The notes below the pieces were generated by a model. The model was not told the origin of the DNA. It did not search any database and saw only the letters and a program-made list of their open reading frames with translations. The position numbers and the translations under genes are program-made. A stretch of DNA of 64,000 nt. Source: Thermoanaerobaculia bacterium (lineage in GTDB: Bacteria > Acidobacteriota > Thermoanaerobaculia > Multivoradales > Multivoraceae). This document shows positions 1,021 to 30,264 of the stretch, one piece after another (position 1 is the stretch's first letter; each line of letters begins with the position of its first letter). The stretch spans positions 5,280,001 to 5,344,000 of the forward strand of contig OY761158.1 in the NCBI GenBank assembly GCA_963664405.1. Direction: 5' to 3'.

Positions 1021-2494
1021 CGTCGTTGCCTCCAAGTTGGTCGTAGTCCTCGAGGTTGTGCGGTCTCACGGAGAGATCTCGCTGTTGGAGCTCCTGGCTG
1101 AGCGGCACCGGTAAAGCCGGGGGCTGACCGAGGCCGCGCTGGTGCCGTTCGAGTAGGAGCCGGACGGACTGGAATCGCGGTGCGTGGTTCAGGAGCGCTT
1201 CGCGCACGGCTTTGTCGAGTCGCTGGGGGCCGTACTGGCGCAGGAGTCGGAGCAGGCCGGCGGTCTGCGTTCCGAGGTTCTCGCCTCGCTCGGCGAGCTG
1301 CTGCATCAGCTCTTCGCATCGAGGCACAGCGGAAAACAGCCGATGGAAGCCCCGGTGTCGTCGGGCCCTGCGTTTGTGAGCGAGGAGCTCCTCGAGGTGT
1401 TGAGGATCGAGGATCTGCTCGCCCCGGGAGTACGAGCGAGGGTGCTCGGCGAGGAGCTCCTGGCCATCGAGGATCCGCACCCGATGCTCGCTGGCGAGGA
1501 GCGTGACGGTCCTCTGCACATGACTGTGCGGCACCGAGTAGTCGTTGAGGTCGAAGCGCACGATCGGCGTCTTTCTGACCTTGATCTCCAGTCGCAGGTC
1601 GGTTTCGAAGTCGTCTCCGGGAAGCTCAAGCAGTCGAGGTCGTTCCTGGGCCAGGGCGCTTTTCACGGTTCGCTGTCGGTCCTGCGGCCAGGGTCTGCGC
1701 TGCGACCTCTGGCACCATTCCAGGACCTGCCGATTCAGACGATCCAAATCGCTCACCGTTCGGGCGCCGAAGAACGAGCTTCGCAGGAAGCGGATTGCGC
1801 GCTCGACGCGGCCTTTCTCATTTCCCCGAGCCACCGCGGCGACGGTGGGAAGGAAGCCGTAGTGGCTGGCGAAATCGAGCAGCACGGGATGGAAGCGCAC
1901 CGCGGTTCCCTGCCGCTCGATCACCGCGGTTCGCAGGTTGTCGTACAGAACGGTCCTGACGACGCCGTCGACGTAGTGGAAGGCCAGCTGGTGAGCGTGC
2001 AAGAAGGTTTCGAGACGAGTGTCGAGGGTGAAGTGCACGAAGACCGTGCGCGAGAACGACAGCACGAAGACGAAGGCATAGAGCCGACGATGTGCCCGGC
2101 CGACGCGGAGCCGACCGAAGTGGCCCCAGTCGACCTGCGCCTGCTCTCCTGGCAGCATGCGCAGCGAGAGAAACGCCTCGCGCTGGGGCTTCGGTCGCAT
2201 CGAGGCCACCAGGTGGCGAAACTGATCCGGGCCTCCTGGATAGCCGCGCTCCACCACCATGGTGTAGAGACGGCTCGCCGGCAGTCGTGGGTAGGTCCCG
2301 AGCACCTGCTCGATGAACGGCAGGTAAGGATCGATCATCCTCCCTCGTCGCTGCTGGGGTAGCACGCCGGACTTCTCCAGCGCCCGGCGCACGGTTGAGG
2401 GGTGCAGCTGTAGCTGTCGAGCGATCGTGCCGACTTTCCACTTCTCGACCAGGAACAGACGACGGATCTCCCCGCGCAGCTGTGCGTCGATCAC
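986..2494 (-). CDS. istA: IS21 DDE transposase IstA
   Basis: N-terminal HTH, QAQVDWG, LYDNLR, KGRVERAI and RFDLNDYSVP motifs. GTG start at 2494 with GGAG upstream. Confidence 0.95.
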   Translation of the reverse strand: MIDAQLRGEIRRLFLVEKWKVGTIARQLQLHPSTVRRALEKSGVLPQQRRGRMIDPYLPFIEQVLGTYPRLPASRLYTMVVERGYPGGPDQFRHLVASMRPKPQREAFLSLRMLPGEQAQVDWGHFGRLRVGRAHRRLYAFVFVLSFSRTVFVHFTLDTRLETFLHAHQLAFHYVDGVVRTVLYDNLRTAVIERQGTAVRFHPVLLDFASHYGFLPTVAAVARGNEKGRVERAIRFLRSSFFGARTVSDLDRLNRQVLEWCQRSQRRPWPQDRQRTVKSALAQERPRLLELPGDDFETDLRLEIKVRKTPIVRFDLNDYSVPHSHVQRTVTLLASEHRVRILDGQELLAEHPRSYSRGEQILDPQHLEELLAHKRRARRHRGFHRLFSAVPRCEELMQQLAERGENLGTQTAGLLRLLRQYGPQRLDKAVREALLNHAPRFQSVRLLLERHQRGLGQPPALPVPLSQELQQRDLSVRPHNLEDYDQLGGNDDGPTQEESNDP

Positions 2495-2498
2495 GCCC

Positions 2499-2894
2499 CT
2501 ATCTCCGTCGGCAACGACGAAAGCTCGTTCGCACAAACTCTCGGCAGGCCTCTCCACACTGCATGCATCGCGGATTCCTCGGGTCGTAGCGCACTTCGCG
2601 CCTCGGAGTCTCGATCCGACACAGTGTCCTCCCCGAAGTACCGCCTGGGGTACCCTGATGCGTCACTTTCTCTGCCCGCTCGCGCTGGCGCCGACGGTAG
2701 CGGGCCTGACGGGCGGCATGACAATGCCGACCTCGGAGGCTTCGCTGGTACCGATGGCCGGCCGCCCGAGTCGATTCCCGACGAGCCACCAGAGCACAAG
2801 CCCGGCAGTAACGCTGGCCACGGTCACAGTGCGAGCACAGCGAGATACGCCGACGGCATCGAGCACAGTCGAAGAGTCGGTAGTCCGGTCGCAT
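2499..2894 (-). CDS. Cys-rich putative zinc-finger protein upstream of istA
   Basis: CxxC-x6-CxxC-x6-CxxC (CARC, CSHC, CRAC), an Arg-rich helix and a C-terminal CMQC. Its stop lies 4 bp before the istA start. Confidence 0.75.
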   Translation of the reverse strand: MRPDYRLFDCARCRRRISLCSHCDRGQRYCRACALVARRESTRAAGHRYQRSLRGRHCHAARQARYRRRQRERAEKVTHQGTPGGTSGRTLCRIETPRREVRYDPRNPRCMQCGEACREFVRTSFRRCRRR

Positions 2895-3253
2895 CGTCGC
2901 CTCCCATTCGACGACGACCCCGACTCTCTGCCATACTGCAAGCGCAGCTAATGCTGCGGTTTGGGGCAGAGCCCGGGGCGTTTTCTACTTCGCTTTCCCG
3001 GGCTCTCGCCGTCTCTGGTCGGCCTGCTCTATCAGAGCAGAGCCCGCACTGCAAAGCCCTACACCGACTCACGCATCTCTTCCGACCGCAAACACGCCGC
3101 CGGGACCACGCACCCGGACCGCCGTTCCGGCGGGATGATGTCGCCCTTCCTGAAGAAGGCCTAGCTTTCCCGCGGTCGCGAAGCCCTCAGCTCACTCCAT
3201 CCCGGAAACTGCGCTCGCAGCCAACGGGATGCGCTTTCTCGCAGCCATCAACA

Positions 3254-3700
3254 CATGGCGCCGCGGACGGCGCTGCCGTCCTGCCGGACGGCTCTCAGGC
3301 GTTGTCGGGCGTGCCCCCACCCCCGGATTCAGTAGCACATGGCGCCGCGGACGGCGCTGCCGTCCTGCCGGACGGCTCTCAGGCGTGGGCGGGCGTGCCC
3401 CCACCCCCGGATTCAGTAGCACATGGCGCCGCGGACGGCGCTGCCGTCCTGCCGGACGGCTCTCAGGCGTGGGCGGGCGTGCCCCCACCCCCGGATTCAG
3501 TAGCACATGGCGCCGCGGACAGCGCTGCCGTCCTGCCGGAGGGCTCTCAGGATTGGGCTGGCGTGCCCCCACCCCAGGATTCAGTCGCACATGGCGCCGC
3601 GGACAGCGCTGCCGTCCTGCGGGACGGCTCTCAGGATTGGGCGGGGGGGGGTTGTTCCCCACCCCAGGATGCAGGCCCGCATGGCGCCGCGGACGGCGCT
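3254..3700. repeat. Tandem array of 84-bp REP/BIME-like units (5 full plus 1 partial)
   Basis: CATGGCGCCGCGGAC starts at 3254, 3338, 3422, 3506, 3590 and 3680. Units carry the hairpins GCGCCG-CGGA-CGGCGC and GCCGTCC-TGCC-GGACGGC, with minor variants in later copies. Confidence 0.9.
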
Positions 3701-19716: not shown

Positions 19717-20946
19717 TTGGAGGTCAATGTGGAAGTACAGTCCTCGAGGTCGAAGATCGGTGAAAGCTCGGGCCCGCTTGCGGGGGTGCGCGTTGTGGAC
19801 TTCTGTAGCTTCATCGCCGGTTCCTTCGGCGCGATGATGCTCGGAGACATGGGGGCGGAGGTCGTCAAGGTCGAGCCCCCAACAGGCGATCCCAGTCGCA
19901 ATTGGGGTCCGTTTATCGACGGCGAGAGTCGTCTCTTTCAGGGCTGGAACCGTAGCAAGAGGAGCGTGGCCTTGAACCTCAAGGACCCGCGCGGGCTGGA
20001 GGTCGCCGACGACCTCGTGCGCGGCGCCGACGTAGTGATGGAGAACTTTCGGCCTGGCGTGTCCGAGCGGCTCGGTATCGGCTACGAGCGGCTCAAAGAA
20101 ATCAACAAGGGAATCGTCTATCTGAGCTCGACCGCGTTCGGCCACACCGGCCCTGACCGGCTGCGACCGGGGTACGACCCGGTTTTGCAGACGATCAGTG
20201 GCGCGGCAAAGATGCACGAGCGCTTTTGCGATCAAGTGCATATTTGCTCCGTCGCGGTGAGCGACTATGGAGCGGCCATGCTCGCGGCCGGGGCAGTCTG
20301 TGCCGCTCTCTTCCATCGCGAGCGAACAGGAGAGGGGCAGAAGCTCGAGACCTCTCTCTTACAGGCGGTGATGACGGTGCAGTCGGCGGCTTTCATCCAG
20401 GCTCTCGAGCACGAGGAAGGCACGGTGGGGGGCATCTACCCGTACCGCAACTTCGAGACCGCGGAGGGCCCTCTGTTCATCGCCGCCGGCACCGACAAGT
20501 TTTGGCGCCTCCTTTGCGACGCGATCGGTCACTCCGATTTGGGGGAGGACCCGCGCTATGACACCAACCCCAAACGAGTCGCGGCGATTCCGGAGCTGGA
20601 GGAGAAGCTGAAGCCGATCTTTCTGCGACGAAGCAGTCGCGATTGGGAGTCGCTGCTGGTGGAGAAGGGAGTTCCGTGCGCGGCCGCCCGGACGGCTCTC
20701 GAGTTCTTTGACGAGCCGCAGGTGGAGGCTCTCGAAATGAACCCGGTGATCCAACACTCGAAGCTGGGACCGCTCCGGGTATCGGGACTTCCGGTCGGCT
20801 TCAGCCAGACTCCCTGCGCGATCCAGAGCGCTGCGCCTCTTCTTGGCGAGCACAGTCGGGAGGTACTCGCTGCGCTCGGTTACGAGGACTCGCGCATTAC
20901 ATCGCTGGTCGAGGCGGGGGTTGTCGTCGAGGCTGGAGGCGGATGA
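19717..20946 (+). CDS. Class III CoA-transferase (CaiB/BaiF)
   Basis: PLAGVRVVD, LGDMGAEVVKVEP, NRSKRS, ENFRPG and APLLGEH motifs. Start uncertain. Confidence 0.92.
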   Translation: MEVNVEVQSSRSKIGESSGPLAGVRVVDFCSFIAGSFGAMMLGDMGAEVVKVEPPTGDPSRNWGPFIDGESRLFQGWNRSKRSVALNLKDPRGLEVADDLVRGADVVMENFRPGVSERLGIGYERLKEINKGIVYLSSTAFGHTGPDRLRPGYDPVLQTISGAAKMHERFCDQVHICSVAVSDYGAAMLAAGAVCAALFHRERTGEGQKLETSLLQAVMTVQSAAFIQALEHEEGTVGGIYPYRNFETAEGPLFIAAGTDKFWRLLCDAIGHSDLGEDPRYDTNPKRVAAIPELEEKLKPIFLRRSSRDWESLLVEKGVPCAAARTALEFFDEPQVEALEMNPVIQHSKLGPLRVSGLPVGFSQTPCAIQSAAPLLGEHSREVLAALGYEDSRITSLVEAGVVVEAGGG

Positions 20947-21545
20947 GCCGTCTCATCATGATCCGTCATGGTGAGAGCCTTGCCAACTTGGAAGGACGTT
21001 TCACCTGGACTGTCGATGAACCGCTTACCCCGATAGGTGTCGAGCAGGCACGCGCGACCGGCGAACATCTGTCGCTTCACTTCACCCCGAAGGTGCTTTA
21101 TGCGAGCCCATTTCGTCGCGCCTTCGAAACGGCTCGAGAGATCGGCGGGATTTTCGGTCTCGAGCCGCAGGTCGTCGAGGCGTTTCGCGAGCAGGACTTT
21201 GGCGTCTTCAAGGGGCAGCCCTACGCGAACTTCTACGGCAACCACGCCGCAGGCAGTGCGGAGCGTTGGGAGTTGCTTCCTGAAGGAGGAGAGAGGCTGA
21301 GGGAAGTGGCCGAACGGGCGGGGGCGGCTCTCGATCGCATCGCCGAGGAACATGCCGGAGATGAGGTCCTGGTGGTCAGCCATGGTGGCGTCATGTCGGC
21401 ACTACGAGGTTGGGCGCGGGCGGACTACACTCGAGCACCGACACCGACTCGCAACGCATGGGGCTACGTTCTGCAGTGGCGTAGCGGCGATTATCACGGT
21501 CCTATCGAGCTCGATGACTACCCGGGCTCGGAGCCGCGGGAGTAG
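20943..21545 (+). CDS. Histidine phosphatase family protein
   Basis: RHGES, ASPFRRA and VSHGG motifs. Confidence 0.9.
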   Translation: MSRLIMIRHGESLANLEGRFTWTVDEPLTPIGVEQARATGEHLSLHFTPKVLYASPFRRAFETAREIGGIFGLEPQVVEAFREQDFGVFKGQPYANFYGNHAAGSAERWELLPEGGERLREVAERAGAALDRIAEEHAGDEVLVVSHGGVMSALRGWARADYTRAPTPTRNAWGYVLQWRSGDYHGPIELDDYPGSEPRE

Positions 21546-21569: not shown

Positions 21570-22745
21570 ATGTTGTCTTCCTTCGTCGTTCTGGTCGGCG
21601 CCGTCCTCGGCGCCGTTGTTTTGGGCTTCTGGCTCCTCCTCCTGACCGACCGCAGTCGGGCCTGGCCTCGTGAGCTCTTCTTACGGCACTCGGGGCCGCC
21701 TCGGTTTGAGTCTTCGGTAGCCGTTCTCGTCCCGGCTCGCGACGAGGCCGCGATGCTGCCGCTGACATTGCCTTCGCTGCTCAATCAAGACTTTGGCCGC
21801 TACGAGGTTGTGGTCGCCGACGACGGCTCGAGTGATGGGACGGCAGAATTGGCGATGGGGCTCGCGGAAGAGACTGCCGGCTCGGTGGCGGTTGTGATCT
21901 GCGCCCCGAAACCCACAGGTTGGGCCGGAAAGGTCCATGCCCAGCAATGCGGTCTGGACGCGATTCTCGGCAGTGGCGCGGTTCCTGAGTGGATGCTCCT
22001 ATCCGATGCCGATATCCGTCATCCTGACGACTCCTTGTCTTCGTTGATCGCCCAGGCGCAGCGCGGCGGCTACGACATGGTCTCGGTGATGGCCCGGCTC
22101 CACGCCGGCAGCTTTTGGGAGCGCCTGCTGATCCCTCCCTTCGTTTTCTTTTTCAACCTTCTCTACCCCTTTCGTAGCGTCCGCCACCGTTCGTCCGAGG
22201 TCGCCGCGGCCGCCGGCGGGTGCGTTCTGGTCCGCACCGCCGCCCTGGTCGAGGCCGGTGGCTTTGCGGCGATTCAGGGGGAGTTGATCGACGACGTCGC
22301 ACTGGCCCGTCTGCTCAAGAGCCACCACCGGCAGCTATGGCTCGGCTTCGATCCTCAGATCGAGTCGGTTCGCCCTTACCGCTCCCTCGCCGAGCTATGG
22401 GACATGGTCGCTCGCAGTGCCTTTGTTCAGCTCGGCTACCGGTACTGGTTGGTGCCCCCGGTCGCTCTCGGGCTGGCGATATTCTTCGTCGGCCCGCCGG
22501 TGTTAGCCCTAGCCGGCTTTGCCGCACACAGTGCGATCATCGTTCTCCTTTCGTTGGCTGCTTGGCTGCTTCAGGCCTTTCATCTTTATCCTTATGGCCG
22601 CCACCATCGGGTCCCTGCCGCCTACAGTTTCCTGCTGCCTCTAGCTTCGGCGTTCTACGCTGCGATGACTGTGAGCTCGGCGTGGCGCCACCTCTTGCGC
22701 CAGGGCTCGCGTTGGAAGGAGCGCGACTACGGGAGCTCAGAATGA
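21570..22745 (+). CDS. hpnB: GT2 glycosyltransferase, hopanoid-associated HpnB-like
   Basis: VPARDEA, DDGSSDGT, GWAGK, AAAGGCVL, IDDVALA and WDMVARSAFVQL motifs. Confidence 0.75.
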   Translation: MLSSFVVLVGAVLGAVVLGFWLLLLTDRSRAWPRELFLRHSGPPRFESSVAVLVPARDEAAMLPLTLPSLLNQDFGRYEVVVADDGSSDGTAELAMGLAEETAGSVAVVICAPKPTGWAGKVHAQQCGLDAILGSGAVPEWMLLSDADIRHPDDSLSSLIAQAQRGGYDMVSVMARLHAGSFWERLLIPPFVFFFNLLYPFRSVRHRSSEVAAAAGGCVLVRTAALVEAGGFAAIQGELIDDVALARLLKSHHRQLWLGFDPQIESVRPYRSLAELWDMVARSAFVQLGYRYWLVPPVALGLAIFFVGPPVLALAGFAAHSAIIVLLSLAAWLLQAFHLYPYGRHHRVPAAYSFLLPLASAFYAAMTVSSAWRHLLRQGSRWKERDYGSSE

Positions 22746-23197
22746 GCGAGGTCACCGTCAGAAAGATGCGGCCCTCCGAGTTGGACCTGGTGGCCGAGCT
22801 CTGGTGGCACAGTTTCGACGACTCGACCCAGTGGCTCCGCCCCGACCAGAAGCACCCCCTGGCGGAAGCGCTGAGCTTCTTTCGCACCGTTGTAGCGAAG
22901 CGTTGCGAGTTATGGATAGCGATGCGTGAGGAGGCAATTGTCGGCTTACTGGCAATGCACGGAGACGAGGTCGATCGTCTCTACGTTGCCACCGAAGCAC
23001 AGAAGCAGGGCATCGGAGGTACCCTCCTCGATCACGCCAAGGCGTTATCTCCGGACGGCCTCCGTTTGGTCACCCTGCAGCGCAACACGCAGGCACGTCT
23101 CTTCTACGAGCGCCACGGTTTCGCCGCCTTCGACACCGGCTGTAGCGCTCCTCCGGAAAACGAACCGGACATCTGGTATCGCTGGCCCAGCTGGTGA
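22742..23197 (+). CDS. GNAT N-acetyltransferase
   Basis: LYV..QKQGIG and NTQARLFYERHGF motifs; ATGA overlap with the upstream stop. Confidence 0.88.
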   Translation: MSEVTVRKMRPSELDLVAELWWHSFDDSTQWLRPDQKHPLAEALSFFRTVVAKRCELWIAMREEAIVGLLAMHGDEVDRLYVATEAQKQGIGGTLLDHAKALSPDGLRLVTLQRNTQARLFYERHGFAAFDTGCSAPPENEPDIWYRWPSW

Positions 23198-23291: not shown

Positions 23292-24743
23292 ATGATGATG
23301 AGTGCTGCTCTTCAACGCCTTGGCGACGGCTTGGTGGCGGTTGTCAAAGAGGATTGTCCGACCTGCAAATTGGTGACGCCGGTGCTGCAGGAGCTCCGCT
23401 CCTTGGGAGTCGGCGTGCAGGTGGTGACTCAGGACGACCCCGACTTTCCAGAGGGGCTCGAGGCGATCGACGATCGCGATCTCGAGATCTCTTACCGTCT
23501 CGAAGTAGAGGCGGTGCCTACTCTTTTCAAGATCGAGCAGGGCGAAGTCCTTGATCGTCGTGTGGGCTGGAACCGTCAGGAGTGGCGCGATTTCACGGGC
23601 GTCGAAAGCTTGGGTCTCGAGATGCCTGAGTATCGACCGGGGTGTGGGTCTCGAACCACCGAGCCTGGCGCTGCCGAGCGACTCAAGGTGCGTTTTGACG
23701 CTTCCTCGCTCCAATCTCGGCGAGTGGAGATTGGCGGCGAAGAGGATCCGATCGAAGCTTGCTACGCACGAGGTTGGAGCGACGGCCTGCCGGTGGTTCC
23801 GCCGACTCCCGAGCGGGTGGAGCGCATGCTGTCCGGAACCCGTCGCGACCGCGCCGAGCTGGTGGCGGTGGTACCGCCCGATTACGCCGAGTGCACGGTC
23901 GAGAAAGTCGCAATCAGCGCGGTCATGGCCGGCTGCCTGCCCGAGTACCTGCCAGTGGTGATGGCGGCAGTGGAAGCGGTTTGCACCGACGAGTTCAACA
24001 TCCACGGCCTCGCCGCCACCACGATGGCGGTGGGACCGGTGGTGATTGTCAACGGTCCGATCCGACAGCGGATCGGGATGAACTCGGGTATCAACGCGCT
24101 CGGGCAAGGGAATCGTGCCAACGCCACTATCGGTAGAGCGTTGCAACTGGTGGTGCGCAACGTGGGCGGAGCCCGTCCCGGCGGCGTCGACCGCGCCACC
24201 CTGGGCAATCCCGGAAAGTACACGCTCTGTTTTGCCGAGAACGAGGAAGACTCTCCCTGGGATTCTCTGGCGCAGGAGCGCGGAGTCGAGGCTGAGGCCT
24301 CAGCTGTGACCGTCTTCGGCGCCGATGCGCCGCACCTGGTGATAGATCAGCTCTCTCGCACGCCGGAATCGCTTGCCATCTCCCTCGCCGGTACGTTGCG
24401 CGCATTGGCGAACGCCAAGCTCGTCCTCGGTTTCGATGCCTTCATAGTCATCGGCCCCGAGCACGCCAGGGTTTTCTCCGACGGAGGTTGGTCGAAGGCG
24501 CGGTTGCGCCAGGAGCTGCTCGAGATCCTGACCATGCCGGCGGCCGATCTGGTGCGGGGAGCCGGGGGCTGCGCCGAGGGGCTACCGGAGTCTTTCTCTA
24601 GCGAAGAGGTCTGCAAGTTTGGCAACGATGCCCTGTGGTTCGTTCATGCCGGGGGAAGGGCAGGAATGTTCTCGGCGGTGATGGGAGGCTGGGCGCGTGG
24701 CCCGCGAGGGAGCATGCCGGTGACCAGGGAGGTGAAAGAGTGA
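23292..24743 (+). CDS. Thioredoxin-like (CPTC) domain fused to a conserved domain of unknown function; UGSC selenoprotein partner
   Basis: KEDCPTC..VPT in the N-terminal domain; GWSDGLPVVPPT, AVMAGC and NRANATIGRA in the C-terminal domain. Confidence 0.8.
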   Translation: MMMSAALQRLGDGLVAVVKEDCPTCKLVTPVLQELRSLGVGVQVVTQDDPDFPEGLEAIDDRDLEISYRLEVEAVPTLFKIEQGEVLDRRVGWNRQEWRDFTGVESLGLEMPEYRPGCGSRTTEPGAAERLKVRFDASSLQSRRVEIGGEEDPIEACYARGWSDGLPVVPPTPERVERMLSGTRRDRAELVAVVPPDYAECTVEKVAISAVMAGCLPEYLPVVMAAVEAVCTDEFNIHGLAATTMAVGPVVIVNGPIRQRIGMNSGINALGQGNRANATIGRALQLVVRNVGGARPGGVDRATLGNPGKYTLCFAENEEDSPWDSLAQERGVEAEASAVTVFGADAPHLVIDQLSRTPESLAISLAGTLRALANAKLVLGFDAFIVIGPEHARVFSDGGWSKARLRQELLEILTMPAADLVRGAGGCAEGLPESFSSEEVCKFGNDALWFVHAGGRAGMFSAVMGGWARGPRGSMPVTREVKE

Positions 24744-25258
24744 GCGAGAGTACGTTGTTGGACCCGACCAGCGAGCGCCAGCCGTCTCGGCGGGCAGCCG
24801 CTCCACGTCTGCCGGCCATCGCCGGCCGAAAAATTGGGCTACTCGATATATCGAAGGCGCGTGGCGATGTCTTCCTCGACCGGGTCGAAGAGAAGCTGAC
24901 CGCCGGCGGCGCGGAGGTGCTGCGTTTCGCCAAGCCGACCTTTACCAAGCCCGCGCCGGTGGACCTGCGCCAAGAGATTGCCCAACGCTGTGACGCGGTC
25001 ATCGAGGCTCTCGCCGATTGAGGGTCCTGCACGTCGTGCAGTGTGCATGACATGACTGATCTCGAGAGCCGCGGTATCCCGACCGTTTTCGTCGCGTCTT
25101 CGGAGTTTGTTGATGCCGCGGTGGCGCAGTCGTCGGCTCTAGGTTCCGACTCGCCGCGAGTCTTCGTTCCTCACCCGATCCAGGATCGCACCGACGAAGA
25201 GATCCTGGCACTGGCCGAGGCGGCATTTGACGAGATTGTAGGTGGATTGCTTCAGTAG
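24740..25258 (+). CDS. UGSC-family selenoprotein (TGA 25019-25021 read as Sec)
   Basis: Track ORFs 24635-25021 and 25043-25258 share a frame. Read-through gives EALAD-U-GSCTSCSVHD...ESRGIPTV. GTGA overlap start at 24740; SECIS-like hairpin downstream. Confidence 0.88.
25030..25054 (+). promoter_or_regulatory. Candidate bacterial SECIS element
   Basis: GTCGTGCA-GTG-TGCATGAC 8-bp stem (25033-25051, one G-U pair), with the apical G 20 nt after the UGA. Confidence 0.6.
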
Positions 25259-25571: not shown

Positions 25572-26579
25572 GTGAGAGAGGTAGAGAGTTTCGAGACCAG
25601 TGAGGGGCGCCATATCTACGCTTTGCCGATCGAGGCTTTCCCCGACTTCTTTGTCAACATCTATGTGATCAGCGACGGCGAGCGGCGCTTTCTGGTGGAT
25701 TGCGGCTCGCCGATGGAGAAGTCGAATCGCGACCTCGTGGCCGCGCTGGAGACGGCCAGCGAGCGTTTCGGCGAGCCCCTGTCGCTCGCCACGATGGATC
25801 TCATTTTCATCACCCACGGTCACACCGACCACTTTGGTGGCCTCCCCTTCGTGCGTAGGCATACGGACGCCCCGATCGGGGTCCATGTGCTCGATCGCCG
25901 CATCCTTTCGCATCACGAAGAGAGGGTGATCGTCGCTTCCAAGCACCTCCAGGTCTATCTCGCGCGCTCCGGCCTGTCGCAAAACGCGCGACAGGGACTG
26001 ATGCAGATGTATCTCGCGCCGAAGAGCATGTATCGCTCGACCGAGGTCCAATTCGAGCTCGAGGAGGGGCCCCGAGCGGAGGACGGTGTTGAGATCTTTC
26101 ATGTTCCGGGTCATTGCCCGGGCCAGGTTTGCATCCGGGTCGACGACATTCTGCTGGCCGCTGATCATGTACTGTCGCGTATCACTCCGCATCAGTCGCC
26201 TGAGTCGATCACTCTCAATATGGGTCTGGGTCACTATCTCGACTCTTTGACCAAGATTCAGCCCATGGAGGGAATCCGCCTTACGCTCGGGGGGCACGAG
26301 AATCCGATGGAGGATCTCTTTGGCCGTGTGGGCGAGATCAAGGCGTCCCACGACGAGCGCCTCACTAAGGTGCTCGATCTGTGCCGGAGCGAGCCGCAGT
26401 CGATCGCCGCGGTCTCGAAGTCTTTGTTCGGTGACGTCAAGGGCTACACGGTGCTCTTGGCGCTCGAGGAGGCCGGCGCGCACGTCGAATATCTCTACCA
26501 GCGCGGGGAGCTGGTGGCCGGAAATGTCGAGGAGCTGCGCGATCAGGAAGAGCCTGTGATTCAGTACCAGGCGGAGTGA
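25572..26579 (+). CDS. MBL-fold metallo-hydrolase
   Basis: THGHTDHFGG, PGHCPG, ADH and GGHE motifs. Confidence 0.9.
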   Translation: MREVESFETSEGRHIYALPIEAFPDFFVNIYVISDGERRFLVDCGSPMEKSNRDLVAALETASERFGEPLSLATMDLIFITHGHTDHFGGLPFVRRHTDAPIGVHVLDRRILSHHEERVIVASKHLQVYLARSGLSQNARQGLMQMYLAPKSMYRSTEVQFELEEGPRAEDGVEIFHVPGHCPGQVCIRVDDILLAADHVLSRITPHQSPESITLNMGLGHYLDSLTKIQPMEGIRLTLGGHENPMEDLFGRVGEIKASHDERLTKVLDLCRSEPQSIAAVSKSLFGDVKGYTVLLALEEAGAHVEYLYQRGELVAGNVEELRDQEEPVIQYQAE

Positions 26580-26644
26580 GAGCTGCCCCCTCAGCAGGTC
26601 TCATGTGGTACAAATGACAGCTCAGCTTCTACGAGTCGCGCACT

Positions 26645-27292
26645 TTGAAGATTCAAGGCGAACACTTCTTGGCCGCCCCACAGGACTTGGTCTGGGAGGC
26701 CCTGCTTGACGCGGAAGTACTTTCGGCCACGGTCCCTGGCTCGCAGGGCCTCGAGCAGATTTCCGAGAACGAGTTTGAGGGCAAGCTGAAGATCAAGGTG
26801 GGCCCCGTACAGGGTGTCTTTCAAGGGAAGGTCTCTCTCTCCGATCTCGAGCCCCCGAGCAGTTATCGCATCAAGATCGAGGGCCGCGGACCCGTCGGTT
26901 TCATGAGCGGGGACGGGACCGTCAAGCTCAGCCAGAGCGACGGAGGGACGCTTCTAGGCTACGACGTCACGGCGCAGATCGGAGGCCGCATCGCCGGCGT
27001 GGGTCAGCGCTTGATGGACAGTACTGCCAAGGTGATCACCCGCCAGACCCTGGAAGCTCTGGGAGCCCAGATCGAAGCACGAGCGGCGGACGACGCTGAG
27101 GACGTGGATGAAGAGGGAGCGGTCGAGCCCGCCCCGCCGCCGCGACCGGCGACGGAGTCGGAGTTTGCCGCACAAGTCGCCAAGGGCGTGGTAGCCGAGC
27201 TGGTGCCCGAGCAGTACCGACGTATGGCTGTAATGGCCATCGTGGGCCTGGGGGCCGCCGGCGCCGTTCTAGCGCTTCGGGGGTGCGGCTGA
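26645..27292 (+). CDS. coxG: CoxG (SRPBCC) with C-terminal membrane anchor
   Basis: VWEALLD..VPG, KVGPV and [11 protein letters not shown] motifs; hydrophobic tail. Confidence 0.88.
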
Positions 27293-27422
27293 TGCCGGAA
27301 CGCTCTCGAGAGGCTTGGTATGGTCGAATGAGAACGCCTGGGGTCCCGGGACTCGGAGCAGGGATCGCGTGGACTTGTCGCAGTAGCAGAGAATGGGCGG
27401 TCGGAAAACCTCGGAGGTGTGT

Positions 27423-27893
27423 ATGAAGCACAGAGTTCGAATGGAAGTAAACGGATCAGCGGTCGAGCGTGAGATCGAGCCGCGCACACTTCTTGTCCAT
27501 TTCTTGCGCGAGGATCTGGCGCTGACCGGCACCAACGTCGGCTGTGAGACGAGTCTGTGTGGCGCTTGCACCGTTCTCATCGACGGCCAAGCGGTGAAGT
27601 CGTGTACCCAGCTCGCGCTACAGGCGGAAGGTCGCAGTGTGACGACGATCGAAGGGTTAGCCGAAGACGGCGAGCTTCACCCGCTCCAGCAGGAATTCTG
27701 GGACAACCACGGTCTGCAGTGCGGATATTGCACTCCTGGAATGATTCTGTCCTCGGTCGCGCTGCTGAGCGAGAACCCGAGTCCAACAGAGGAGGAGATC
27801 CGCAATGGTCTCCGAGGCAATCTGTGCCGCTGCACTGGCTACCACAACATCATCAAGGCGGTGAAGGCTGCCGCCGCCGGTCAGGGGACTTGA
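27423..27893 (+). CDS. coxS: 2Fe-2S small subunit CoxS
   Basis: [19 protein letters not shown] and NLCRCTGY motifs. Confidence 0.95.
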
Positions 27894-27894
27894 T

Positions 27895-30264
27895 ATGGGA
27901 GTCCTAGGAACCTCCATCAGACGTCGAGAAGACCCGGCTCTAATTACCGGCCAAGGCAAGTACACCGACGACCTGACCCTGCCGGGCATGCTCCACGCCG
28001 CGATGGTGCGCAGCCCTCATGCACACGCACGGGTGAAGAATGTCGACGCTGCGGCCGCGCTGGCCCTGCCAGGGGTCACGGCGGTTTACACCGCCGCCGA
28101 CGTCGAGGCGAGCGCTCTGCCGGGAGTCCTTCCCGTAGCCTGGCTGCTGCCCGGTCTCAAGACCCCCGCCCATCCGATCCTCGCCGGAGATACGGTGCGC
28201 TATGTTGGCGATGCAGTTGCCGTCGTCGTCGCCGAGGACCGGTATCTGGCCAAGGATGCCGCTGACCTGGTGGAGGTGGAGTACGAGCCTCTGGGCTCGG
28301 TCACAGACCCGGCTCTGGCGGTTCAGGAAGGAGCGGTCCAGATCCATCAGGAGGCGGAGCGGAACATCGCTTTCGACTGGGACATCGGCGATCGCGAGAA
28401 GACCGATGCCGCGTTCGCTGTCGCCGCCAGCACGGCCGAGATCGAGCTGCGTAACAACCGTCTGATCCCTCACGCTATCGAGCCGCGAGCGGCGCTGGCG
28501 GACTTCGACACCATCGCCGGCAAGCTCACTCTGCGACTGACTTCGCAGAATCCACATGTACATCGGCTGCTCATGTTCCTCGCCTCGATTGGGCTGCCGG
28601 AGCACAAGATGAGGATCATCGCCCCGGAAGTGGGGGGCGGCTTCGGCAGCAAGATCGCGCACTATGCCGATGAGGCGATCACCAGTTTCTGCGCCATGCA
28701 GCTGGGGTGCCCGGTGAAATGGACGGCGACACGGAGCGAAACGAATCTCACCGACACTCACGGTCGCGATCACGTTACTCACGCTGCAATCGCGCTTGAC
28801 GAGGATCACAAGATCATTGGTCTCAAGGTGGAGACCCACGCGGCGCTCGGTGCGTATCTGTCGACTTTCGGCCCGGCGGTGCCCACCTATATGTATGCAC
28901 CCCTTCTTTCCGGGGCGTACGACATTCCGGCGATCCACGCCCACGTCCTCGGTTGCTTCACCACTACGACACCGGTCGACGCCTACCGCGGCGCCGGGCG
29001 TCCGGAAGCCACCTTTGTGATCGAGCGCCTCGTCGACCTCGCGGCGCTCGAGGTGGGCGTCGACCCCGCCGAGCTGCGGCGGAAGAACTTCGTGGTGCCG
29101 GAGAAGTTCCCCTACGAGACTCAGGTTGCTCTGACCTACGACAGCGGTAACTACGAGCCGGCCCTCGACCGTGCTCTCGAGATGGTCGGCTATGGCGAGC
29201 TTCGTCGAGAGCAGGCCCGCCGGCGCGAGGAAGGCGGCAATCTTCTTGGTATCGGCTTCTCGACCTACATCGAGGCCTGTGGCCAGGCCCCCTCGAAAGT
29301 AGCCGGCGCACTAGGTGCGCAGGCAGGCCTCTGGGAGAGCGCCGAAGTTCGGGTAAACCCTAGCGCCTCGGTGGTCGTCTTCACCGGCTCTTCGGCGCAC
29401 GGCCAGGGCCACGAGACGACCTTCTCCCAGATCGTGGCCGACCGACTCGGTATCGACATCGACGCGGTCGAGGTGGTCCATGGTGACACCGACCAGGTGC
29501 AGTTCGGCATGGGAACCTACGGAAGTCGTAGCGCTGCGGTCGGCGGAAGCGCCATCGCCAAGAGCGTCGACAAAATCATCGAGAAGGGTCGCAAGATCGC
29601 CGCCCACCTGCTCGAGGCAGCGGTGGAGGACGTCGACTTCGAAGACGGTCGATTCGGCGTAAAGGGAGCGCCGGATCAGAGCCTGGGGTTCGCCGATGTG
29701 GCACTGCAGGCCTACTTGGCCCACAACTATCCCGACGATTTGGAGCCTGGGCTGAGCGCGACTTCTTTCTACGATCCGGTCAACTTCACCTATCCCTTTG
29801 GGGCTCACATTGCGGTGGTCGAGATCGATACCGACACCGGCGCTGTGGGCTTGTTGAGATATGTCGCCGTCGACGATGTCGGCAACGTCATCAACCCGAT
29901 GATCGTCGAGGGCCAGATCCACGGCGGTGTGGCCCAAGGCATTGGACAGGCCCTCTGGGAGGGCGCGGTCTACGACGAGAGCGGCCAGCTGATTACCGGC
30001 ACGCTGATGGACTACGCTCTACCAAAGGCCCATAACCTGGTGTCCTTCGAGCTCGATCGCACCGTGACGCCCTGCCCTCACAACCCGTTGGGTGTGAAGG
30101 GAGTGGGGGAGGCCGGAGCCATTGCCTCTCCCGCCGCAGTGGTCAATAGCGTCGTGGACGCCTTGCAACATCTGGGAATCAAACACCTCGACATGCCCCT
30201 GACACCGGAGAAAGTGTGGCGGGCGATGTCAGACGCCGCGGATGGCGGCAACGGGAGCGACTGA
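27895..30264 (+). CDS. coxL: Molybdopterin large subunit, form II CoxL-like
   Basis: GGGFGSK, AYRGAGR (form II; form I is AYRCSFR) and GVKGVGEAG motifs. Confidence 0.92.

Follow-up and report, generated by a model that had tools for sequence, protein, structure and literature searches.

A UGSC-family selenoprotein gene and its thioredoxin-bearing partner as a candidate thiol/selenol oxidoreductase operon in a Thermoanaerobaculia genome

The UGSC family and the closest described systems

Ever since 2007-2008, lists of predicted selenoproteins from marine and freshwater metagenomes have placed proteins of the UGSC family among the most abundant ones (PMC2398784, PMC13188914). In GOS, their selenocysteine (Sec) forms largely outnumber their Cys forms (255 versus 21; PMC2398784), and reviews to 2026 assign them no function in the passages on this family (PMC2398784, PMC13188914). 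A fusion of UGSC to a domain designated 'Unknown_1' was reported in 2008 (PMC2398784, Fig. S1A), and the family is curated in both NCBIfam and Pfam (NF041046 and PF24696, respectively). Therefore, the first-pass annotation, which was made from the sequence of the window (a stretch of 64,000 nucleotides from a Thermoanaerobaculia bacterium), overstated its case in speaking of a hidden selenoprotein and an uncharacterised system; its statement that UGSC is a predicted selenoprotein family without known function agrees with the passages on this family in both reports.

The locus does not define a new family. Indeed, the UGSC family was already known and the link with its partner had been hinted at earlier; the mechanism is what we infer. 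Within a closed genome of 6.8 Mb, the locus provides a clean and complete case, i.e., a two-gene operon, a very well-defined SECIS and a partner bearing a thioredoxin domain. Like the members of NF041046/PF24696, its product displays the family motif, a length of ~170 aa and a TGA-encoded Sec followed by a downstream hairpin, with no distinguishing feature; its subfamily is recognized by a partner with an N-terminal thioredoxin domain. With the UGSC/Unknown_1 fusions, as depicted in PMC2398784, the locus shares the conserved block of Unknown_1. However, these fusions carry UGSC followed by Unknown_1 in one protein, whereas in the locus Unknown_1 and UGSC are encoded by two successive genes, the former first, and Unknown_1 is joined to a thioredoxin domain rather than to UGSC.

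The GrdB/PrdB selenoproteins (PF07355, TIGR01917, TIGR01918) are found in amino-acid-fermenting anaerobes, and the UxxC motif of GrdB/PrdB-type reductases is held to resolve the adduct to a selenenylsulfide. UGSC appears to have in common with them a UxxC motif (UxxCxxC in UGSC), an LE..GIPT strand located 12 residues further on, an HP motif and the association of a thioredoxin-type reductant with the system. However, UGSC is much shorter, its scores fall far under the family cut-offs (21.4 bits for TIGR01917, cut-off 602.2; 16.2 bits for TIGR01918, cut-off 65.45), its hosts belong to aerobic soil, freshwater and marine lineages, and its partner differs by sequence from the GrdE/PrdA-type pyruvoyl proprotein (none of 46 Unknown_1 members matches a recurrent family). 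The likeness to the Sec region of GrdB/PrdB, which had been pointed out from the sequence, is weak, although it can be reproduced. At E<=0.01, 10 of 21 UGSC members are matched by TIGR01917, all far under its cut-off, and 9 of 21 by GrdF; in model coordinates, the weak profile matches of UGSC fall at 333-398 of 431. No match to PF07355 was obtained at this E value. Using hhalign, residues 106-149 of UGSC were aligned over 37 columns with residues 187-223 of the PrdB-like selenoproteins of the same genome, with a probability of 44% and an E value of 2.3e-4 for a profile of four sequences, and in both types of proteins the aligned block is preceded by Sec at a distance of 12 residues. BLASTP of UGSC against the PrdB-like selenoprotein of the genome returned nothing. 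The resemblance being weak, UGSC is therefore not a member of the GrdB/PrdB family.

The fusion of a thioredoxin to its client enzyme is a general pattern, exemplified by the thioredoxin-fused methionine sulfoxide reductases. The partner of UGSC conforms to this pattern by its N-terminal CxxC thioredoxin fold with a cis-Pro and its larger domain with a conserved cysteine. It differs from such fusions by a client domain belonging to no catalogued family and by the need for a separate Sec protein.

The UGA codon of the UGSC gene and the downstream hairpin

All the features described below are located on the forward (+) strand of the window. The list of ORFs obtained with table 11 includes ORF 24635..25021 and ORF 25043..25258, which share one frame broken at TGA 25019-25021, as the first-pass annotation had noticed. 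Translation through this TGA from GTG 24740 leads to a protein of 172 aa (gene 24740..25258) that reads ...EALAD-U94-GSCTSCSVHDMTDLESRGIPTVFV... and therein U-G-S-C-T-S-C (25019..25039); UGSC orthologues likewise start ~5 residues ahead of LLDPT. The start codon (GTG, 24740-24742) overlaps the stop codon of the upstream partner gene (TGA, 24741-24743) in a GTGA sequence (24740..24743), which also bears out the overlap previously described. The 172-aa protein matches NF041046 with 159.6 bits (curated cut-off 125) and PF24696 with 153 bits (curated cut-off 25), and a single family model crosses the TGA, covering residues 29-168. All 21 aligned UGSC orthologues match NF041046 as well. A search of the PDB sequences with the UGSC profile gave no match at E<=10.

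The 172-aa protein displays the motif D-U94-G-S-C97, and U-G-S-C is invariant in the 74 complete orthologues. All 74 complete downstream homologues use TGA at the Sec codon, an open frame is found on both sides of this TGA in 75/75 loci, and TGA is also present in the 24 UGSC matches from the phylum sample. Among the paralogs, U94 and C97 are the only residues of the motif that are kept throughout. Contigs from three runs belonging to three studies cover 25019-25021 and display no alternative letter such as TGC or TGT. A Cys was expected at the TGA column in some homologues; it is indeed found in two of the four natural fusions whose sequences were examined (DCGSC in P0226 and P0200), whereas the 74 complete homologues mentioned above all carry TGA. 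The two other fusions have CGAS (P0227) or have lost the motif (WSGV in P0268). A word search with residues 1-200 of P0226 for further Cys-form fusions returned four proteins, too few for a deep alignment. Contigs from RNA libraries are confined to 25016-25051 and a handful of other short stretches, where they show mismatches; deriving from relatives, they have no bearing on the expression of the UGSC gene in this organism.

The SECIS hairpin, GUCGUGCA-GUG-UGCAUGAC, spans 25033..25051, i.e., 12-30 nt past the TGA. It consists of an 8-bp stem, including one G.U pair, and of a loop led by G. It begins after 11 nt, the UGA-to-hairpin spacing rule of E. coli fdhF. As single-sequence folding of the region is not discriminating (z 0.11; 105/200 shuffles fold equally well or better), folding energy was left out of the SECIS evidence, which relies on comparison. 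When the window locus and 74 related loci are considered together, codons +4 to +10 appear frozen: ACG in 70/75, TCG in 74/75, TGC in 75/75, AGT in 75/75, GTG in 75/75, CAC in 74/75 and GAC in 75/75 loci. The invariant residues located off the stem use 2-5 synonymous codons. Furthermore, 94.6% of the cells pair across 42 distinct sequences, paralogs included, and changes on both sides are found for four of the eight pairs, a level of covariation reached in none of 500 shuffles. The paralogs carry the hairpin at the same position despite their differing peptides, with compensatory changes. Rfam contains no family matching the hairpin, the lone row being a chance snoRNA match (E 3). Frozen synonymous sites and compensatory changes thus both uphold the SECIS hairpin proposed 3' of the TGA.

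The genome encodes the whole Sec machinery, as the first-pass annotation had asked to be checked. Indeed, selA (423.1 bits), selB (339.8 bits) and selD (362.1 bits) all score above cut-offs, and a tRNA-Sec (selC) with anticodon TCA reaches 72.4 bits, also above its cut-off, in agreement with the ARAGORN call tRNA-SeC (tca). The selD gene of this genome has an in-frame TGA of its own. Globally, the comparative sequence data indicate that UGA 25019 is recoded to selenocysteine, and the UGSC gene is almost certainly that of a real selenoprotein with a SECIS.

The partner protein and its association with UGSC

The partner gene (23292..24743) encodes a protein made of a thioredoxin-like domain and of Unknown_1. 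It comprises 483 aa from ATG 23292; since a database cluster that is 100% identical (P0003) has 481 aa, the start may be located at 23298. The AF2 model of the whole protein displays a pLDDT of 95.0 and a pTM of 0.89. The N-terminal domain (residues ~3-104; 23298..23603) was compared with thioredoxins using VIA-align (Z 9-10, rmsd 2.1-2.5 over 88-100 residues) and Foldseek (E 3e-5 to 1e-3), and a search of the PDB with the partner profile retrieved thioredoxins and nothing else. Its score with the TrxA equivalog model TIGR01068 is 21.4 bits, under the cut-off of 96.8. This domain is thioredoxin-like, not TrxA.

The three cysteine motifs that had been spotted upstream of UGSC were all found. 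The CPTC redox motif (C22 and C25; 23355..23366) caps the N-terminus of helix 23-37 according to the DSSP of the model, PGCGS (residues 116-120, with Cys118; 23637..23651) forms the linker joining the thioredoxin domain to Unknown_1, and MAGC (residues 212-215; 23925..23936) places Cys215 in a loop before helix 217-230. Among the rows of the A1 alignment that include the thioredoxin domain, C22 is kept in 25/26, C25 in 19/26 (Ser in five others) and cis-Pro76 in 28/28; Cys118 is present in 24 of the 30 rows with residues in this column. In two other members of the family, P0128 and P0155, the position of the thioredoxin domain is occupied by a Redoxin/TlpA-like CxxC domain. A thioredoxin domain is absent from three of the four pairs of the genome, and an in-cis reductant is therefore optional.

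The C-terminal domain (residues ~140-483, ~345 aa; 23709..24740) carries the block AVMAGC..PEY.PV...A.EA......F of Fig. S1A of PMC2398784, in which the Sulfitobacter and Hyphomonas rows are near-identical to it over the AVMAGC block. By this sequence signature, as displayed in the figure, it is identified as the Unknown_1 of the 2008 report. Its family includes 6147 representatives (clusters at 50% identity, E<=0.001). A search of Pfam and NCBIfam with 46 members revealed no recurrent family at E<=1, a remote relation below the reach of HMMER being possible. ESM Atlas clusters with Unknown_1 are unnamed or called "thiol-disulfide oxidoreductase family", none with a Pfam family. Modelled alone by AF2, the domain displays a pLDDT of 91.2; Foldseek found no match at E<=0.001, the best one being a class I fumarate hydratase (E 2.1e-3, TM 0.27) with which VIA gives a Z of 4.8 over 194 residues (rmsd 5.2), below the meaningful level. 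The wide VIA comparison retrieved no chain with Z>=8 (top Z 6.2, for HypA over 79 residues), and a second look at the PDB by VIA raised the top Z to 6.3, in a range of 6.2-6.3 over 78-79 residues. For this predicted model, no fold can be named from matches this weak, and they do not prove the novelty of the fold. Of the cysteines of the domain, C215 is the best conserved (40/42 A1 rows, invariant in A4), C313 is found in 36/41 rows, and D164, T172, C215, N277, R282 and E316 line a conserved pocket.

The tight coupling of UGSC to the upstream gene, which had been proposed from the sequence, extends well beyond the window. UGSC is located directly downstream of the partner gene, on the same strand, in 77 of 80 partner loci; two of the 80 (L043 and L097) have enough flanking sequence but no downstream UGSC. 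At the scale of the phylum, 16 of 201 genomes have UGSC and the same 16 have Unknown_1, with equal copy numbers in 14 of these listed genomes. The exceptions are G142 (one UGSC, two Unknown_1) and the genome studied here, whose four UGSC and five Unknown_1 matches form four adjacent pairs. In the phylum sample, Unknown_1 lies at <=1.5 kb from UGSC in 19/24 loci, and no copy is so near in 5/24. The two proteins have correlated distance matrices (r 0.879 for 29 pairs, as high in none of 2000 permutations), a value that, like the co-occurrence counts, is inflated by shared ancestry. Moreover, natural UGSC-Unknown_1 fusions, among them P0226, P0227, P0200 and P0268, were found again in a set of 22 scanned proteins, with four full-length ones and four that begin within UGSC, right past the Sec position. 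From these comparisons, the two genes are kept together, are gained and lost together, diverge together and are sometimes fused, and they very probably specify an obligate two-protein module. The comparisons indicate that UGSC requires, in practice, a partner domain whose very large family is absent from Pfam and NCBIfam and is devoid of any convincing solved relative.

Proposed mechanism and competing explanations

We consider, with a probability of roughly 60%, that the two-gene operon specifies a self-contained thiol/selenol oxidoreductase recycled by the fused thioredoxin domain. The product of the first gene is a cytoplasmic protein combining the CPTC thioredoxin fold, the PGC118GS linker and the ~345-aa Unknown_1. 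During translation of the second gene, the hairpin 25033-25051 acts as the Sec signal and is read by the SelA, SelB, SelD and tRNA-Sec of the genome. UGSC would dock onto the Unknown_1 domain. The catalytic scheme itself is more tentative: Sec94 would be the nucleophile, directed either toward a substrate held by Unknown_1 or toward Cys215, and Cys97 would resolve the adduct to a selenenylsulfide, by analogy with GrdB/PrdB-type reductases. The latter may be re-reduced by the fused thioredoxin domain, possibly through Cys118, with thioredoxin reductase and NADPH as the presumed source of electrons. Some members of the family lack Cys100, Cys84 or Cys118, and Cys215 is missing from two of the 42 Unknown_1 rows.

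The thioredoxin-fed two-component reductase put forward by the first-pass annotation is a plausible proposal. The patchy distribution of the pair and the presence of four diverged pairs in one genome suggest a family of small-molecule or detoxifying reductases with several specificities. A bolder reading, which is speculative and rather doubtful, would make UGSC and Unknown_1 a new class of Sec-dependent reductases, the aerobic-world counterpart of the substrate-specific B component of glycine/proline reductase; UGSC would be a minimal PrdB-like Sec subunit, Unknown_1, the fold of which would be absent so far from solved structures, would replace the pyruvoyl protein, and in this subfamily the built-in thioredoxin would recharge the system. 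If this were true, the four pairs of the genome would be four enzymes with different substrates, and a function would be found for a selenoprotein family that ranks among the most abundant in aquatic metagenomes. In any case, the function of the UGSC/partner pair is now open to defined experiment.

The alternative that best withstands the data, although unlikely, is that UGSC is a mere electron carrier, similar to thioredoxin or GrdA, while Unknown_1 is the enzyme and catalyses the reaction at Cys215 and Cys313, so that Sec never meets the substrate. Indeed, Unknown_1 is larger and better conserved than UGSC and has the invariant polar pocket and cysteines described above; a thioredoxin-like fold was suggested for UGSC by Zhang et al. 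2008 in the part of PMC2398784 dealing with this family; and the loss of the redox motif in some fusions, such as P0268, implies that Unknown_1 may work without it. However, the partner already possesses a thioredoxin domain and a second carrier therefore seems redundant. Furthermore, the constancy of Sec (74/74 complete loci and 24/24 phylum matches) and the predominance of Sec forms counted in GOS (PMC2398784) fit a catalytic nucleophile better. The weak but reproducible likeness to GrdB/PrdB, whose Sec is catalytic, also speaks against a mere carrier.

It is improbable that, instead of reducing an organic substrate, the pair uses U94, C97, C100 and C84 to bind or transfer a metal, a metalloid or sulfur/selenium species, for detoxification, for trafficking or at a cluster site. 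UxxCxxC and the Cys84 located upstream of it do provide four soft ligands in orthologues, and the only whole-domain structural hints for Unknown_1, weak as they are, concern iron-sulfur-dependent class I fumarate hydratases. However, these matches lie under the level that the tool considers meaningful, C100 is replaced by Gly in two paralogs of the genome, C84 is missing from one subfamily, and the flank clusters include no recurrent metal transporter or regulator.

The neighbourhood bears on a further proposal of the first-pass annotation, namely that the pair, the downstream MBL-fold hydrolase and the CoxG/S/L-type molybdenum hydroxylase act in one pathway. In the window, one strand carries all these genes within 5 kb, and the two closest relatives (L034 and L054) likewise have an MBL homologue after the pair. 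However, this link is not conserved and a common pathway is strongly disfavoured: these two are the sole related loci out of 80 with the MBL homologue, CoxL is found in 5/80, a gap of 313 nt separates UGSC from the MBL gene, and the three other pairs of the genome have different neighbours. More generally, no third gene is conserved overall beside the pair in 81 loci, and no neighbour among them points to a substrate. Apart from the pair itself, the commonest flank clusters correspond to HhH-GPD (25 loci), alpha/beta hydrolase (19) and flavin reductase (13); shadow frames, with no Pfam match, account for several of the clusters. The promoter scan detected no promoter-like site, and the terminator scan gave one terminator-like site, located inside the partner gene, a number that does not exceed the one obtained with shuffles.

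Finally, the view that TGA 25019 is a true stop, with a pair of small ORFs unrelated to each other or a disrupted gene at this place, can practically be dismissed: table 11 does split the frame and the folding energy of the hairpin is not significant, but a single family model spans the TGA, the TGA and the open frame on both sides are found at every one of the 75 loci, the synonymous sites of the hairpin are frozen and the genome possesses the full Sec machinery.

The UGSC gene and its recoding signal

When the TGA at 25019-25021 is read as selenocysteine (Sec) from a GTG start at 24740, the frame that it breaks into two ORFs (24635..25021 and 25043..25258, table 11) yields a single 172-aa protein, ...QRCDAVIEALAD-U94-GSCTSCSVHDMTDLESRGIPTVFV... 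(24740-25258, + strand). The GTG (24740-24742) overlaps the TGA stop (24741-24743) of the upstream partner gene, and the two genes form a bicistronic unit through these overlapping codons. The ORF and translation check found in place every feature named by the first-pass annotation. The read-through protein matches NF041046, "UGSC family (seleno)protein" (NCBIfam; 159.6 bits, cut-off 125), and PF24696 (Pfam; 153 bits, cut-off 25), both matches crossing the TGA. Among 80 partner loci, TGA occupies the U column in all 74 complete downstream UGSC homologues (74/74), within the motif EALADUGSC(T/A)(S/T)CSVHD. Furthermore, contigs from 3 runs of 3 different studies cover 25019-25021 with no alternative letter. 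The gene is, as predicted from its sequence and that of its homologues, a genuine, textbook-quality selenoprotein gene, which extends a known, curated family by one member. The idea of a hidden or new system was therefore abandoned, a connection of this family with the partner domain having been foreshadowed in 2008.

The genome, a single 6.78-Mb contig in which the window spans 5280001-5344000, encodes the Sec machinery that such a gene presupposes in the first-pass annotation: selA (423.1 bits, cut-off 267.9), selB (339.8 bits, cut-off 242.25), selD (362.1 bits, cut-off 125; with one in-frame TGA of its own) and a tRNA-Sec (72.4 bits, gathering score 47; called tRNA-SeC with anticodon tca by ARAGORN). 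SelD matches lie at 388007-388930 (+; locus L010) and 565727-566650 (-; locus L011). The second SelD-like match (242.9 bits), inside a 749-aa open frame, may be a fused protein comparable to the Ndh-SelD fusions mentioned in PMC2398784.

The predicted SelB-type recoding signals are clear at the UGSC gene. A hairpin at 25033-25051, GUCGUGCA-GUG-UGCAUGAC, lies 11 nt from the UGA, with G as the first base of its loop; this spacing is that of the E. coli fdhF element. The single-sequence folding energy is uninformative (z 0.11; 105/200 shuffles fold equally well or better), but the comparison across loci is decisive. Indeed, in the window and 74 loci the stem and loop codons are frozen: ACG 70/75, TCG 74/75, TGC 75/75, AGT 75/75, GTG 75/75, CAC 74/75 and GAC 75/75, the sole CAT at the CAC codon being that of the window itself, where a G-C pair becomes G.U. 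Invariant residues outside the stem use four codons for Gly+1 (49/13/10/3), five for Ser+2, and four each for Ala-4 and Gly+18. Paralogs whose peptide differs still have a hairpin in register, for example GUCGGGCA-GUU-UGCUCGAC (UGSCSSGSLLD) and GUCAUGG-UGUAC-CCAUGAC (UGSCSSWCTHD). In a set of 42 distinct sequences, pairing holds in 94.6% of cells and 4 of the 8 pairs show both-sided changes, values reached by 0/500 shuffles, and slid controls drop to 5-57% paired.

The metagenome word depth, computed on contigs of three metagenome-type runs, is 1650-3580 in the bin 24976-25049 versus about 5 on each side, which therefore reveals a short nucleotide island common to many community members. During assembly this SECIS and motif core behaves as a repeat, and in the same three runs contigs break at 25011-25051.

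The partner protein and its Unknown_1 domain

The partner ORF (23292-24743, + strand) encodes 483 aa (481 aa in the identical public cluster) and carries the motifs CPTC (residues 22-25), PGCGS (116-120) and MAGC (212-215). Its AlphaFold2 model, built from a 42-row alignment, is confident (pLDDT 95.0, pTM 0.89) and shows a CxxC domain of thioredoxin fold joined to a conserved domain that bears Cys. In this model residues 3-104 adopt a thioredoxin fold (VIA-align Z 9-10, rmsd 2.1-2.5 over 88-100 residues; Foldseek E 3e-5 to 1e-3), CPTC capping the N-terminus of helix 23-37, and thioredoxins are the only matches in a PDB profile search. Among alignment rows with this domain, C22 is kept in 25/26, C25 in 19/26 (five Ser), the cis-Pro in 28/28 and the linker Cys118 in 24/30. 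TrxA itself is ruled out (TIGR01068, 21.4 bits vs cut-off 96.8).

From residue ~140 to the C-terminus extends a separate domain, already in print as "Unknown_1" (PMC2398784). Its conserved positions are D164 (GW.DGLPVVPPT), T172, N277 and R282 (G.RANATIGRA) and E316 (AENEE), together with two cysteines, C215 (AVMAGC, in the loop before helix 217-230; 40/42 rows) and C313 (36/41). The same block appears in the alignment of Fig. S1A of that article, for example as AINAVMAGCKPEY.PV.IAA.EAVCTDEFNIHG in the rows of Sulfitobacter and Hyphomonas.

Unknown_1 is a very large family that has yet to be catalogued and whose fold is not recognisable. A word-indexed search gave at least 8000 scored candidates, and an exhaustive search of 50% identity clusters retrieved 6147 representatives at E<=0.001 and 1538 at E<=1e-30, named at source only "thioredoxin family protein", "thiol-disulfide isomerase/thioredoxin" or "hypothetical"; no Pfam or NCBIfam family recurs at E<=1 in the 46 aligned members (0/46). 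Folded alone, the domain is predicted with pLDDT 91.2 and pTM 0.91. Foldseek returns nothing at E<=0.001 (best, class I fumarate hydratase, E 2.1e-3, TM 0.27), VIA-align against 48,161 chains nothing at Z>=8 (best Z 6.2 over 79 residues), and a second structure search reaches Z 6.3. The domain thus has no convincing solved relative, which falls short of proof for a new fold, and these Foldseek and VIA-align searches give no reading of its function.

Association of UGSC with Unknown_1

In the best 80 of 499 confirmed relatives of the partner gene (species-representative genomes), a UGSC homologue lies immediately downstream on the same strand at 77 loci, 74 complete and 3 ending at a contig edge before the motif. 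The other three comprise one locus with only 138 nt of flank (L079) and two without UGSC downstream (L043, L097). Within the phylum, UGSC is found in 16/201 sampled genomes, with an in-frame TGA in 24/24 matches, and Unknown_1 in the very same 16; copy numbers are equal in 14/16, the others being the genome under study (4 UGSC vs 5 Unknown_1 matches) and G142, another sampled genome (1 vs 2). Unknown_1 lies within 1.5 kb at 19/24 UGSC loci, and none of 14 model genomes carries UGSC, without exception (0/14). By gene content, Unknown_1 is obligately associated with UGSC. The distance matrices of 29 pairs correlate (r 0.879, 0/2000 permutations as high), a value inflated by shared ancestry.

Fusions were scanned in 22 chosen Unknown_1 family members. 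Four are full-length UGSC-Unknown_1 proteins (P0226, P0227, P0200, P0268) and four start within UGSC, of which they keep the C-terminal third (P0222, P0224, P0204, P0264), a fifth such case, P0262, remaining below the cut-off. P0204 begins MSWSVHD, directly past the Sec position; the latter four are, to judge from their starts, Sec-form fusions whose gene call begins after the TGA. A Redoxin/AhpC-TSA-type CxxC domain replaces the thioredoxin domain in two of the 22, and other family members are stand-alone (~350 aa) or tandem (~715 aa). Taken with these fusions, the pairing figures, even inflated by shared ancestry, leave little doubt that UGSC and Unknown_1 work together.

The matches of the genome under study form four adjacent pairs, including that of the window. 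The others, at 1791168-1792905 (-), 2233593-2235174 (+) and 5227169-5228774 (-), all have a TGA in UGSC and no thioredoxin domain. In the last one, UGSC precedes Unknown_1, which is matched in two frames, suggesting a frameshift or a former fusion. Paralog identity is 37-40% for Unknown_1 and 26-38% for UGSC, and the window's copy shares 65-76% with copies from other phyla; the four pairs are, on these identities, old paralogs. G044, another genome of the phylum sample, has two UGSC genes and two for Unknown_1 on a single strand within 21 kb (1228587-1249605); they are not adjacent but 2.5-10 kb apart, and may form a larger cluster.

The pair is preceded on the same strand by genes for a family III CoA-transferase (19717-20946), a histidine phosphatase (20943-21545, 4-nt overlap), a family 2 glycosyltransferase (21570-22745) and a GNAT acetyltransferase (22709-23197). 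After a 313-nt gap follow genes for an MBL-fold hydrolase (25572-26579), CoxG (26645-27292), a 2Fe-2S CoxS-type subunit (27393-27893) and a molybdopterin CoxL-type subunit (27895-30264), the stretch 25572-30264 showing no gene of the FAD-binding CoxM type. The proposed link to the MBL hydrolase and Mo-hydroxylase was not kept: MBL homologues occur near the pair at 2/80 loci and CoxL at 5/80. The commonest other flank clusters, HhH-GPD (25/81 loci), alpha/beta hydrolase (19) and flavin reductase (13), are lineage-bound and indicate no pathway.

Likeness to selenoprotein B and possible mechanism

The resemblance to GrdB/PrdB, the Sec subunits of glycine and D-proline reductases, claimed in the first-pass annotation survives only as a distant one. 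Residues 80-150 of UGSC hit the 431-position GrdB model at its positions 333-398 (E 1e-4), and hit the GrdF, GrdH and general selenoprotein-B models as well; among 21 orthologues, 10 match GrdB and 9 GrdF at E<=0.01. Membership of the selenoprotein B family is ruled out, with 21.4 bits for GrdB vs a cut-off of 602.2. The genome also carries four PrdB-like PF07355 selenoproteins with an in-frame TGA and the motif LL.P.UP.C....G..A..LE..GIPT, at 5775757-5776167 (+; L134), 5575401-5575760 (-; L135), 6356530-6356886 (+; L136) and 6329049-6329300 (+; L137). BLASTP of UGSC against a PrdB-like selenoprotein of this genome gives no match, but hhalign with the four aligns 37 columns (probability 44%, E 2.3e-4; LE.rGIPT ... 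V.HP), and in both groups Sec lies 12 residues ahead of the LE..GIPT block. UGSC probably works like the Sec-bearing part of selenoprotein B and is probably a distant relative of it; its partner is, by sequence, no GrdE/PrdA-type protein, the kind that accompanies GrdB/PrdB.

UGSC would dock onto Unknown_1, where Sec94 would attack Cys215 or a substrate in the conserved pocket. Cys97 would resolve the adduct into a selenenylsulfide, to be reduced by the thioredoxin domain, perhaps via Cys118, with thioredoxin reductase as the source; pairs devoid of the fused domain (3/4 in this genome) would use a free thioredoxin instead. The main rival makes UGSC merely an electron carrier, with Cys215 and Cys313 as the site of the enzyme chemistry. 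Since neither Cys100 nor Cys84 is general, it is less likely that the pair handles a metal or metalloid.

UGSC is a predicted selenoprotein of unknown function in PMC2398784, PMC1976440, PMC9312934, PMC13188914 and PMC7539508, whose accessible texts, subscription journals being outside the scope, describe neither a separate thioredoxin-fused partner gene nor any UGSC experiment. The present analysis adds the strength of the pairing, an exceptionally well-supported SECIS, the thioredoxin-fused architecture, the expansion to four pairs within a single genome and the uncatalogued state of the Unknown_1 family. With this operon, what an abundant family of selenoproteins does becomes directly testable.

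In some UGSC-Unknown_1 fusions the redox motif is lost or altered (WSGV in P0268, CGAS in P0227), which suggests that the UGSC domain may have an additional structural role.
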